Shown piece after piece: positions 1-22,908 of a stretch of DNA of 64,000 bases (positions are counted from its first letter, which is position 1; each line of letters begins with the position of its first letter). The stretch is from Octopus sinensis (Eukaryota), in NCBI RefSeq assembly GCF_006345805.1, contig NC_043013.1, positions 8,556,001 to 8,620,000 of the forward strand, given 5' to 3'. Made by a program: the position numbers and the translations under genes. A model generated the notes under the pieces. It was not told the origin of the DNA. It saw only the letters and a list, made by a program, of their open reading frames with translations, and searched no databases.

Positions 1-715
1 CACTTGTTAACCGGGGAAAAACCATTCCTTATGCTGCTTCATATTGATGTACAGGCACCATTTTTCATTGCCAGTAATGATTCAGTAAAGACATCATTGC
101 TTGTGTCCATGAGTTGAGTGGTGACGGTCAAGCAAACCATCAGAGATTGTGGCCAGTTGATTTTTGTTGTTGTCACTTAAAGCATGCGGAACCCATGCTC
201 CATACTTCTGAACCTTTCCCATCAAGTGAAGATGCTTCTCTGTAGCAGTGTGGAAGCATTCCATTTTCTCTGCCAGTTCCCTTGTTGTTTGACAAGAATT
301 TTTATGCAAAAGTTGGTTTAATCGCTCTTCATCGAACTCAACTGGACGGCCAGAATGAAGTGCATCTTTGAGGTCAAAATTTCCATTTTTGAACTTGGCA
401 TACTGATTATGAGCGGTTCTTTCAGCTATGGCACCCTCTCCATACACAGCGCAAATGTCACGAGCAGCTTTTGTGACCTTGGAGCCTTGATTAAAAGCAA
501 AAAGATGTCAAAAATGCTTGTTTTTCTTAACTTGACATTCCATTTTAATGATCTGAAAATAAACAAAAATTAACTAAAATTAACTAGAAAAAAAAACAAA
601 ATAGATTCCAAAATGATTCAAAAATAGAATTCTTGGAAAAAATAGATTCCAAGATTTAAAAACGCAATAGATTCCAAAATTTTAAAAAACGGCGGGAACT
701 TAGTTGCCAACCCAA
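1..715 (-). mobile_element. Mariner (DD34D) transposon, 5' half, pseudogenised transposase; runs off window start
   Basis: TIR TTGGGTTGGCAACTAAGTTCCCGCCG ending at 715, with TA at 716-717. ATG at 543. Translation MECQVKKNKHF*HLFAFNQG..AARDICAVYGEGAIAERTA..FKNGNFDLKD..SGRP..WVPHALS..IITGNEKW contains the WVPHEL and TGDEKW motifs. In-frame TGA at 508, 94 and 82. Confidence 0.93.
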
Positions 716-18237: not shown

Positions 18238-18621
18238 GGCGCTAGCATGGTTGTGTGATTTAAAAGCTGGCTTTGCAACGAAATGGTTTCGGGTTCAATC
18301 CCACAGCATGACACAGCATTGGGCAAGTGTCCTCTGGTATATCCCCAGACCGACTAATGTCTTGTGAGAGAATTCGGTAGACAGGAGCTGTCTGGAAACC
18401 CGTCGTGTAAAGGCGCTGGCGAGGCTGTGTGGTAAGAAGCCTGCTTCCCAACCACGTGGTTCCGGGTTCAGTCCCAGTGCGTGGCACATTGGGCAAGTGT
18501 CTTCTTCTATAGCCTCGGACCGACCAAAGCCTTGTGGGTGGATTTGGCAGACGGAAACTGAAAGAAGCCCGTCATATATATGAATATATATGTATATATA
18601 TATATGTGTGTGTGTGTGTGC

Positions 18622-18680
<59 letters not shown>

Positions 18681-18902
18681 TTTGTGCCTGTGTTTGTGCC
18701 CATCCACACCACCGCTTGACAACCGGTGCTGGTGTGTTTACCTTCTCATAACTTGGCGATTCGGCAAAAGAGTCTGATAAAAATAAATACCAGGCTTATA
18801 AAATGTATGTATTGGGGTCGATATATTCGACTAAAACTTCTTTAAGGCGGTACCCCAGCATGGCCGCAGTCTAATGATTGAAATGAGGAAAAGATAAAAG
18901 AT
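18238..18902 (+). mobile_element. SINE A: decayed head followed by full copy (18411-18902)
   Basis: tRNA-like head TGGC/AGGCTGTGTGG..GGTTCAGTCCC, CCTTGGGCAAGT-like core, internal (TG)n, family tail. Confidence 0.85.
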
Positions 18903-18948: not shown

Positions 18949-18987
<39 letters not shown>

Positions 18988-19051
18988 TATACACACACAC
19001 ACACACATTATTTACAATGGACGGATAAATGTCCTCATCCTCTTTGTTGTT

Positions 19052-19097
19052 ATCACAACATTTCGACTGATGTACTCTCCAGTCTTCATCAGGTGTT
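19052..19097 (-). ncRNA. Minimal type I hammerhead ribozyme motif in inverted pLTR
   Basis: CAC-CTGATGA-A-GACTG..CAGTC-GAAA-TGTT^GTG. Confidence 0.65.
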
Positions 19098-19561
19098 CAA
19101 TGTGAAATTTCGAACCCAACCCTTTATTTGACTAATGAGGTACGCTGTTCTCATTCCTAAGGTATGTTGCTGATGTTATTATTGAGGAGTTGGCCATGAA
19201 GATTCCAAAAGCTCAGGGGGATGAACTAAGATGGAAAATGAGACAGGTACTAGAGAAGACGAAACTTCCTAAACGAAACATAACTATGGAAGAAACGTTC
19301 GCTATTAGAACATTACAGAGTGACAGTTCCGTCCTAATACTTCCAGCGGACAAGGGCAATGTTACAGTGGTAATGAACAAGTCTGAATACTCGGAAAACT
19401 TGGCAAGTCTCATAAGTGATGGTAGCTACAGCAAGATTAAGAAAGACCCACCTCCGAAAACAGAGAGGAAATTCAGTTCTGTATTTAAGAGATAAGGAAT
19501 TATGTACTTTATTTACATTATTTACGTTTGACTGATATTTGTCCTCATCTTGGTTGTTGTT

Positions 19562-19607
19562 AACACAAGGTTTCGGCTAATATACCATCCAGCCTTCATC
19601 AGGTGTC
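19562..19607 (-). ncRNA. HHR motif, left arm (two substitutions)
   Basis: GACAC-CTGATGA-A-GGCTG..TAGCC-GAAA-CCTT-GTGTT. Confidence 0.6.
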
Positions 19608-19746
19608 TTTGGGGAAACTTCGAACCTGGGTTCTCATTCCTAAGGTATTTTTCGATGTTATTGCTATTGTTATTATTCAGGTCCACTGCCTGGAATCGAA
19701 CTCGGAATCTTGGGTTTAGTAGCCCACCACTACGCCACATGCTCAC

Positions 19747-19819
19747 GGGCATATGGCGTAGTGGTTAAGAGCGCGGACTACTAACCCCAAGATTCCGAGT
19801 TCGATTCCAGGCAGTGACC
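19747..19819 (+). promoter_or_regulatory. tRNA-derived internal Pol III promoter (pseudo-tRNA)
   Basis: A box TGGCGTAGTGG (19754-19764) and B box GAGTTCGATTCC (19797-19808) at tRNA spacing. The acceptor and T stems are mismatched. Confidence 0.75.
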
Positions 19820-19830
19820 TGAATAATAAT

Positions 19831-19864
<34 letters not shown>

Positions 19865-19911
19865 TCGAAAAATACCTTAGGAATGAGAACCCAGGTTCGA
19901 AATTTCCCCAA

Positions 19912-19957
19912 GACACCTGATGAAGGCTGGATGGTATATCAGCCGAAACGTTGTGTT
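19912..19957 (+). ncRNA. Minimal type I hammerhead ribozyme motif, intact core
   Basis: Stem I GACAC/GTGTT, core CTGATGA, stem II GGCTG/CAGCC, GAAA, palindromic stem III AACGTT; predicted cleavage after GUU (19952). Confidence 0.8.
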
Positions 19958-20832
19958 AACAACAACCAAGATGACAAATATCCGTCAAATGTAAATATAG
20001 AGAGGAAGTTATCACAGATCTTAATCAAGAACAAGATGACTTCATACCAATGAAGTACAGACAACTGACCTAGCACTACAATAAGCTGCCACACATGTAC
20101 AGTCTCCCGAAGATTCATAAGGATGGTATTACATTAAGACCTGTAGTGAACTGTAGGGATTCAGCATGTCATCCACTGGGCCGCTTCCTTGTGAATATAG
20201 TCAGTCCATTAGCAGGTAAGTGAACGTCGTATGTGAAGAATTCCACTCACTTCACAGAATTGATCAAGGATACTCCTATTGGATCCAACCAGATGGTGAG
20301 TCTAGATGTAATAAGTCTTTTTACCAAAGTCCCAACTAATGAAACACTATCAGTGATTCAAGACAAACTAGTGATGGATACAGCTCTAAAAGAACGCACT
20401 AGTATACCAATAGAAAACTTGATGGAAATGTTGGCTTTCTGCGTAGAAATTACCTATTTCAGAGTAGATACTAATATATATCGACGAATGAGGGTTTAGC
20501 TATGTGTTCGCCATTATCACCAGTAATAGCCAATATATACGTGATATACTTTGAGAATTTGGCTTTAGGATCTATACCATTAAAGCCAACCCTATGGCTT
20601 CGATATGTTGATTACACATTCATACTCTGACCCACACCAAGAGGATGTCTCAGTACTACTAGATCATGTGAACTAAACAAAGCCATCCATACAGTTCAGA
20701 ATCGAAATGGAAAAAGACAATCAGTTGGCATTCCTGGACGTATTAATAATACGCACTGAGTATGGGTTCAGGACATCCGTATACCGCAATCCAACCTTCA
20801 CTGGACAATACTTGAACTTCATTTCCCACCAT

Positions 20833-21124
20833 TTTTTGGTTTGTTTGTTTGTTCCTTCTCGAGCCACGCTTGGCTCATAAGGGCCGGTTTCCCGGTTTCT
20901 TGGCGTATAGGTTCCCCGAAGGTGAGCTGCAAGATGCAGGAGGAAAGAGTGAGAGAAAGTTGTGGCGAAAGAATCAGCAGAACTTCGCCATTACCTTCTG
21001 TCGGAGCTGCGTGGAGCTTAGGTGTTTCGCTCATATACACACACATCGCCCGGTCTGAGATTCGAACCCGCGATCCCTCGACCGTGAGTCCGCTGCTCTA
21101 ACCAATAGGCCATGTGCCTCCACA
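20833..21124 (-). mobile_element. SINE family D (tRNA head, (ACAA)n tail) inside the PLE
   Basis: 13-bp TSD CATTTCCCACCAT (20820-20832, 21125-21137); A and B boxes; second copy at 58265-58568. Confidence 0.92.
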
Positions 21125-22908
21125 CATTTCCCACCATACATACAGTATAAAGAGAGGGATTTCTCAGTGACTAAAACATTGATCAAAGACTATATAAGTA
21201 GCGATCCTGATACACACCAGGAAGAAATGACCAGGCTAAGAAACAATCTGCTATGCATCAACTACCCAAAGAACATAGTATCCACTCCAATTAGGAAGAG
21301 GAGAGGGGATGAAACCCATAAACTGAGCACAGTCTGTCCACCTTATGTCAAAGGCCTCTCGGAAGAGATTTAAAAAATATGCGGTCCATATGACATCAGG
21401 ACAGTATTCAGAAGTAACGCAACACTTTGCAAATATTTTCTCCGAGTAAAACCACCTATAGAAAAAATATATAACCAAAAACTGCGTATATTCGATCCCA
21501 TGCAATTGTGGTAGGTTATACAAAAGCAAAACATGTTGCCCCCTTAAAGTAAGGGTAGCGGAACATCGTAAAGCTGTGATACGAGGGTATGTTGAAAAAT
21601 CGGGTATAGCCGATCATGTAAGGAAAAACGGAGACTACCGCTCGCTGTAGGATGAAGTTAAAATAATCGACAGAGAACACCACTGGAAAATACGAAAATT
21701 CAAAGAGGCTGCACATATGCTAAGCAGATCTAGTTGCAGATATGAATGTAATATGGGAGCCAGTAATAAGAAAAGATAAAATACAAAGTTTATAAACCCT
21801 AAAATTCGTTCTATAGTTGCCCACGGACATGTAGCGTTGTGGATACTAACCCTCTGATTCTAAGTTCAATCCCAGGCAAATCAATGAAACAAGTACATGA
21901 TATGGAATTAGAACTCTTCCTTGTGTTCCGATAAAAAAAAGCGGCCAATTTTTCCATTAATCGAACAACCTGTCGACTGGATTAGCGTGTAAATTTGATC
22001 TGTCAACCCAAGCCATAGTAGACATTTTCCCATCATTCAACATACTGGAATCGAACCTTTAACCTCGTGGTCTTAAACATTCAGCCAATACATGCGACCT
22101 CACATATAAACACGTATAACTTGTATCCCTCAAACTGTAGTTTTACAAGCTCATTTATCACGAACTCCCGAAGCTACGAGATATATATACAAATTGTCTG
22201 TGAAATAAATATGTATGTTCGTTGAGAAAAATACCCTTAGGAAGAAAAGAAGAAAGTTTAGATATACAAAACTTAGTTACTAAAATCAACATTATACGAA
22301 ATAAATTTGAGAACGAAGTCCGTATAGCAATACATTGCTGCTCAGAATAAAGACAGACAACGTCGTACAATCTATTATGTAAATGGCATACCAGAACTGG
22401 ACAATCACTAATGAGACACGAGATCCAATACTCCTAGTATTTTTGTTGTAGCTGCTTTCGTTTTTTTTATTAGACGAACTCATTAACTTTGCTTTTAACC
22501 AAAAAACACCATTATATACAGCTAGACAAAGTTAAGTACGTTTACGCACACATAATATAATTACATTATTTGCTCAGGGAAGTAGGTAATGTTTCATTTT
22601 AACGTTGGTTAGGTTTTTTTTTCTTTTACATAAATGAATGTCCTATACCCTGTAACTTATAAAATTACAATAGACCAGTGAGCTGTGTTTGAAGAGTATA
22701 TGGAAGGAAGAGGAGGATGGGTGTGAGGTGGATCTAACTGAGGGAGAAACTAACGTGCATTGGTTGAGGGTTAGGTAACTTTACAAGAGATGTATGCATG
22801 TATATGTTTGTTTGCATGTATGTATGTATGTATGTATGTGTGTGGTGTGTGTTTGTATAGCTAGACAGAAAGACATGTTTGTGCATTTGTGTCTGTATAA
22901 ATACATAA

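Follow-up and report, generated by a model that had tools for sequence, protein, structure and literature searches.

The locus raises a question of identity: what is a two-armed insert of about half a kilobase, made of head-to-head copies of one sequence and lodged in a Penelope element? A sequence-only reading had described it as a 528-bp palindromic module that joins a tRNA-type promoter to a hammerhead ribozyme, and had proposed a Pol III-transcribed, self-cleaving SINE or retrozyme-like element mobilised by Penelope. We analysed it in the window (the whole stretch of 64,000 nucleotides) and sought its copies in the 2.72-Gb genome of Octopus sinensis. The head-to-head arms, the 9-bp target-site duplication, the A and B boxes, the (AAT)n tract and the hammerhead were all confirmed in place. 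The 528-bp size holds for the exact 9-bp duplication but falls to 525 bp (19474-19998) once the duplication is taken as 12 bp with a mismatch. The features of the insert and of its host are:

19462-19473, plus strand: left target-site duplication, 12 bp with 1 mismatch, of which 9 bp are exact (19462-19470)
19999-20010, plus strand: right target-site duplication, exact 9-bp part at 19999-20007
19474-19744, minus strand: left arm, a pseudo-LTR (pLTR) copy with terminal tail, a 9-nt deletion in the head and a mutated stem III
19474-19518, minus strand: tail, second (distal) RT start site; encodes the ORF N-terminus in full-length copies
19562-19607, minus strand: left hammerhead, core intact, stem III palindrome broken
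19745-19746, no strand: centre of the head-to-head joint, 2 nt, inside a natural short palindrome (head -7 to +5)
19747-19998, plus strand: right arm, a tail-less pLTR copy that stops at the proximal RT start site
19747-19819, plus strand: tRNA-like head, A box 19754-19764, B box 19797-19808; the 5' ends of copies concentrate here
19822-19862, plus strand: (AAT/AAC)n spacer, of variable length and often the target of other insertions
19883-19885, plus strand: ATG of the family's 835-codon ORF, within the pLTR
19912-19957, plus strand: minimal type I hammerhead within the ORF, predicted cut after 19952
19180-21815, plus strand: host, a decayed member of the same family that is truncated at its 5' end and spans RT to endonuclease, 83-88% to the family majority
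19005-19183, minus strand: pLTR arm of the host itself, inverted and without a tail; it is older and matches the majority at about 85%
21816-21878, plus strand: the host's decayed tRNA-like head, directly 3' of the host ORF

In their non-repeat parts, the left and right arms match the family majority at 94% and 98%, respectively. Inverted relative to each other, they are 94% complementary over 19545-19616/19903-19974 and 19609-19677/19843-19911, and 82% complementary overall, across 254 nt. The left arm, previously seen as a decayed mirror image, is indeed inverted and has lost the stem III palindrome through a base change found in its hammerhead only; it is not a plain mirror, being the sole carrier of a tail of ~40 nt and of a 9-nt deletion 3' of the A box. 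The proposed location inside a Penelope element is borne out. The host belongs to the same PLE family and retains an inverted arm and a decayed head of its own, which makes the insert the younger of the two, lodged in an older relative. The host is split twice, by the insert and by a different tRNA-headed SINE at about 20833-21124 (minus strand), which has an apparent duplication of its own and recurs at locus L253; the head of this SINE resembles the PLE head along its first ~32 nt, and a shared donor is possible. Two common SINE-like repeats lie upstream of the host, at 18317-18560 and 18680-18900.

The module is multi-copy, as the genome search suggested by the sequence-only reading was meant to establish. 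With the 528-bp insert as query we obtained 5686 candidates; the best 40 of the 5686, which were scored, are nearly all two-armed, an excess biased by the query itself. Exact patterns gave 136 head-to-head junctions, 650 head 28-mers, 2532 tail 34-mers, 2160 head anchors and 7597 hammerhead matches, with 0 matches for each reversed-sequence control. Given these counts and a divergence of ~7-9% per column, we infer insertions of this PLE family on the order of 10^4 genome-wide. Some near-identical loci with common flanks (L086, L087, L089 and L090 at C1:21.69-22.59 Mb; L050/L051; L131/L138) do not count as independent insertions, being either segmental duplications or repeats of the assembly. 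The family's (AAT)n spacer is a recurrent site of insertion for other elements (L041, L042, L043, L047, L053, L101, L113, L118 and others); some of these have RT-like frames, and they presumably resemble microsatellite-targeting LINEs. At L072 and L084 a SINE lies between the two RT start sites, at the border of body and tail.

The arms lead to a coding parent. Among 29 copies bearing the probable endonuclease region (the query locus excluded), BLAST places the tRNA-like head right after the ORF in 25; two of the remaining four have a partial head (27/29 by eye), in one the head is deleted and in one it is interrupted. The ORF stop is followed after about 30 nt by the head, then by (AAT)n, the ATG, the hammerhead and two fixed 3' end points. 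Going upstream, several head-anchored loci enter a reading frame that terminates about 30 nt short of the head, two others (L159, L167) are continuous from the head into the ORF, and the genome holds 81 exact tail-to-ORF junctions. The majority of 76 segments yields a frame of 835 codons, which opens about 130 nt downstream of the head and traverses hammerhead and tail. This frame has the RT motifs DKG at 296 and YVDD at 536; a real copy matches the RVT_1 profile (E 3e-10), and intact metagenome relatives share 34-37% identity across 655-826 aa. GIY-YIG-like motifs are visible by eye at 726-742 of the majority frame, and Pfam made no GIY-YIG call on a 107-aa fragment; position and relatives indicate a probable C-terminal endonuclease region, and the architecture points to Penelope/Poseidon-type membership. 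No intact ORF occurs among the best-scored matches, in which the longest open frames are of 551 and 384 aa, and copies average 91% to the majority; therefore the family, as judged from the best-scored candidates, now looks decayed and inactive.

Each arm is thus the pLTR of an abundant autonomous Penelope/Poseidon-type family. The whole module, head included, belongs to that pLTR, and the idea of an independent non-autonomous SINE or retrozyme has to be given up. A free-standing SINE with the same head and another body was sought and none was seen: 79 of 99 head-bearing arms have the hammerhead core downstream, and the other 20 are mostly interrupted in (AAT)n or truncated, one of them (L253) being the different SINE mentioned above. 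Other PLE-like families of the genome include a second, younger one with open frames as long as about 900 codons and 3' regions rich in (TA)n (L317-L324, L329; e.g. G000:C16:53369100-53374600) and at least two more (L325/326/331; L327/328/330); by eye, no tRNA-like head lies in the ~420 nt after the stop in these families (L317-L331). An intact metagenome relative of 827 codons has a similar minimal hammerhead 3' of its ORF (L283:2627-2656), without a B box.

The paired form of the insert was then compared across the family. Among 97 two-armed loci, one tail is present in 90, none in 5 and two in 1, with 1 unclear; in 43 pairs chosen by the head alone the figures are 40 with one, 3 with none and 0 with two. 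A duplication of at least 9 bp (mode 12) flanks 65 of the 97 pairs and only 6 of 285 shuffled pairs. The single tail and the ~12-bp duplication uphold mobilisation of the Penelope type. Excerpts of PMC8557442 describe PLE insertions in which a 5'-truncated copy is inverted and a tail of 30-40 bp is often confined to one end. The mirror layout with a single tail of ~35-40 nt and a ~12-bp duplication is the published Penelope insertion signature, and the palindromic two-arm module is this known structure and not, as had been supposed, a dimeric element unit. The same two 3' end points dominate the reads of another organism. Rare variants common to both arms of a locus number 37 (expected mean 9.9, maximum 18), and about 90% of arm-to-arm differences are private. 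The arms disagree at a subfamily site in 9 of 68 pairs, so that not every pair need derive from one RNA. At L040, L044 and L060 the tail sits on the short arm and the long arm is tail-less, which excludes a single cDNA folding back and rules out pure fold-back copying for such pairs. A MITE or DNA transposon is ruled out by unequal arms and varying duplication lengths. Many of the loci L333-L402 have 3' ends scattered 25-600 nt into the ORF, which implies extra RT start sites, so that RT starts are not confined to the two main ones; 7 of 70 tail-to-ORF copies begin precisely at the tail's edge, which would fit a second RT stalling at the first start site.

The reading that we prefer, at a probability of roughly 0.6, is that the insert is an integration product of a Penelope/Poseidon-type element whose pLTR opens with a tRNA-like head, and that the RNA would start there, probably through Pol III. 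The element's protein would bind its own RNA near the 5' end and cut both target strands, ~12 bp apart; two cDNAs would be primed internally at the two target ends, one from each RT start site, a scheme that predicts exactly one tail per insertion. Each cDNA would extend about 250-290 nt to the RNA 5' end, unless it halted before that point or at the ribozyme cut; microhomology would then join both cDNAs head to head, with help from the short palindrome at the head. Short palindromic insertions would likely be by-products that arise when cDNAs run off the transcript of the autonomous element itself; for a long copy, transcription would have to read through as far as a second pLTR.

The start of the RNA at the head was addressed through the 5' ends of copies. 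Of 100 head-anchored arms (the first 100 of 2160 matches listed, all on contig C1, with two loci counted by both arms and one arm from another SINE), 73 begin at +2 to -8, 7 at -9 to -45 and 20 further upstream. For a control anchor in the hammerhead (first 100 of 7597 matches listed, counted by eye), about 6 and at most 8 of 100 end within 10 nt. Random 5' ends reaching into the ORF had been named as the mark of ordinary truncated PLEs; the ends are non-random, although the 27 outside the peak continue upstream towards or into the ORF. An inverted partner was identified for 55 of the 73 head-peak ends, which are spread across 10 nt rather than fixed at a single base. The ORF-containing copies behave alike: in 70 of the 81 tail-to-ORF copies, 55 forward arms stop short of the head, 3 start inside it, 10 at it and 2 upstream, so that 10 of the 12 reaching the head start begin right there; the inverted partners of some of these copies also extend upstream (L345, L370, L390). 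The pile-up of 5' ends at the head, which ORF-containing copies share, is most simply explained by a template RNA beginning there, with a minority of copies derived from read-through RNA. In read runs of three other organisms the top loose 5' ends fall at -7 to +5, and these may be shared old insertions.

Could the peak be made at the joining step, by cDNAs of a longer RNA that fold back or anneal at the -7 to +5 palindrome, with no RNA 5' end there? The palindrome is fully spanned by 21 of the 73 ends, which means that joining bias does inflate the peak; the 136 exact symmetric junctions and an 8-nt palindrome at a second hot spot, near the ribozyme cut, point the same way. However, the other 52 ends are too short to span it, many are joined to internal positions or flank DNA, and at L040, L044 and L060 tail-less head arms are joined to tail-bearing short arms. 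We consider it very improbable that joining accounts for the whole peak. In the family majority, positions -6 to +4 of the head (19741-19750) could pair into a short stem capped by a 4-nt CACG loop, a loop type of unusual stability.

The head itself is recognisably tRNA-like. It aligns to the genome's tRNAs with a score of 60.5 (500 shuffles: mean 28, maximum 46), and the best-scoring candidate donor among 27 distinct tRNAs of 9 anticodon types sampled is tRNA-Arg(TCT), at 61.5. Both boxes match the consensus in the family majority, so that the proposed tRNA-type internal promoter motif stands. The tRNA fold, a prerequisite for RNase P processing, is unsupported (z 0.13), and neither ARAGORN nor Rfam (gathering cutoff over the window; E up to 10 over 18950-20050) called a tRNA or a hammerhead. 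Consensus-like boxes with a lost fold are what SINE heads present.

Which polymerase would use this head is less clear-cut, and we give Pol III roughly even odds. The 2657-nt sense strand of the majority unit has 0 TTTT runs where nulls expect 2.6-5.1 (P 0.026-0.028 for codon shuffles, 0.003-0.011 for base-composition nulls, 0.075 for first-order Markov), and GGGG is absent too (P 0.05). Real family copies, which are not independent, carry 32 TTTT against 64.6 expected; metagenome relatives have 51 against 48.6, the main other family of the genome has 2-6 per ORF, near expectation, and two other families fall below expectation (4 against 7.4; 6 against 12.7). The missing TTTT may be said to fit Pol III weakly. 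Unstranded raw RNA reads of a related organism show no start or end pile-up and are evidence neither way. Uncapped Pol III RNA is a poor mRNA. This, and the D. virilis Penelope promoter, described in excerpts of PMC2377424 as internal, TATA-less and of Pol II type (Inr/DPE), weaken the Pol III reading. That Pol III would transcribe the whole PLE mRNA is accordingly a tentative proposal, on balance unlikely. Equally doubtful is the fuller scenario in which an autonomous coding retrotransposon would have swapped its Pol II promoter for a captured tRNA-type one, the whole 2.7-kb unit would be Pol III-transcribed, TTTT would have been purged from the ORF and the copies would record cleavage in vivo.

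The same element and insertion mechanism could also operate with a head-start RNA that is a Pol II transcript, the tRNA-like piece being a captured SINE or tRNA relic. Besides the Penelope promoter just cited, the need to translate the ORF and the weakness of the T-run evidence favour this, as does the head being as close to another SINE's head, the second one in the window (59-65; shuffles maximum 37.5), as to tRNA-Arg(TCT). Yet both boxes match the consensus although the fold is lost, the 5' ends cluster just 5' of the A box, and the unit lacks TTTT; we regard it as improbable.

A division of labour between two RNAs was also weighed: a Pol II mRNA, plus short Pol III RNAs made from any pLTR head and mobilised in trans, in effect a built-in SINE. 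Short copies exceed tail-to-ORF copies about 30-fold or more (2532 and 7597 against 81, all exact matches of differing lengths), poly(A) is unnecessary for an internal RT start according to excerpts of PMC11167929, and Sm-alpha, in the partial accounts cited below, is a precedent. However, copies that continue into the ORF start at the head too (10/12), so that RNA begun at the head includes the ORF start; a subfamily of short copies with a sequence of its own was not seen, and priming near the mRNA 5' end explains the short-copy excess without a second RNA. Such an arrangement is decidedly improbable.

A second accumulation of 5' ends occurs at the predicted ribozyme cut. Once arms with likely internal deletions are set aside (262 of 445 remain), 22 ends fall in the 10 nt from the cut onward and 4 in the 10 nt before it (P 3e-4); ORF-junction copies contribute 13 versus 1 and the rest 9 versus 3 (P 0.07). 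This fits run-off on ribozyme-cleaved RNA, which would bear on the open question of PLE hammerhead cleavage in vivo; rival causes are RT stalling at the 3' edge of the ribozyme and the nearby 8-nt palindrome. The hammerhead at 19912-19957 has its core, an extra base after position 9, G10.1-C11.1 and a palindromic stem III; stems I and II fold with z -2.7, stem II having 5 bp and a 10-nt loop. Intact hammerheads were found in 48 of 251 arms. Within the family, stem II shows single changes only and no covariation in 196 arms, and the host arm's stem II carries one double change. The predicted cut is not the end of the element, as the arms stop about 55 and 90 nt beyond it.

PLEs are the least understood class of retrotransposons, and the many copies of this family document how they work in nature. 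The single tail, the ~12-bp stagger and the cDNA run-off points extend the in vitro result for PAc to a testable two-primer model. If the head drives the mRNA, Pol III would here transcribe a protein-coding retroelement, which would blur the division between LINEs and SINEs and suggest a route from PLE ends to Sm-alpha-like elements.

Our literature search found no description of a tRNA-headed PLE pLTR; Repbase and Dfam lay outside it, and the sequence may be deposited there with no such head annotated. The supplement of PMC8557442, as far as available, lists octopus Naiads and gives no tRNA match, and the excerpts of the giant squid paper hold nothing relevant to such a pLTR. The sequence-only reading was unaware of a description of this architecture in cephalopods; the combination of tRNA promoter and hammerhead is known from Schistosoma. 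There, excerpts of PMC6765202, PMC2770079 and PMC8490949 (citing Ferbeyre 1998 and Laha 2000) describe Sm-alpha/Sj-alpha, present in tens of thousands of copies, as having a Pol III promoter of tRNA origin with a type I hammerhead downstream. These elements are non-coding, SINE-like and tandem, with a canonical hammerhead, and the excerpts mention no ORF-bearing parent with the same head; the octopus module, by contrast, belongs to a coding element and its insertions are inverted pairs.

Metazoan non-LTR retrozymes share short hammerhead repeats related to PLE pLTRs, and the portions of PMC7229834 and bioRxiv 10.64898/2026.07.22.740005 consulted contain no passage on Pol III or tRNA promoters. 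Retrozymes are described there as tandem repeats, with monomer and circular RNA formed between two hammerheads, whereas the octopus arms stand head to head and leave one ribozyme per strand. An informal inspection of loci revealed single or inverted arms and occasional partial tandems, and head-to-tail arrays of the retrozyme type were not apparent. The identification of a minimal hammerhead in a PLE pLTR proves sound: the features given in excerpts of PMC4209133 (extra base 9/10.1, G10.1-C11.1, palindromic 15.2-16.2, short helix I) are present, with no notable difference.

The closest kin are the Penelope/Poseidon PLEs, in the parts available of PMC11167929 (PAc), PMC2377424 (Penelope) and PMC8557442. 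Like the octopus family they have an RT followed by a C-terminal endonuclease region (a probable one in the octopus family), an ORF that starts inside the pLTR and reads through the hammerhead, an inverted 5'-truncated copy, insertion into older copies, and a one-sided tail of 30-40 bp delimited by RT start sites that lie about 120-160 nt from the ORF start. In Anolis Poseidon, according to excerpts of PMC11167929, the ORF begins at the hammerhead and the tail is located 111-172 nt inside that ORF; RT starts internally at two sites, both strands are nicked and a dimer is predicted. The promoter described for Penelope is of Pol II type. The octopus family differs in lacking sense-strand TTTT and in a 5'-end peak at the ribozyme cut, a position at which the excerpts report no reads in PAc RNA-seq. 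Above all, its pLTR opens with an A/B-box head where copies start, and this pile-up of copy 5' ends at the tRNA-like head of a PLE pLTR is what is new here.
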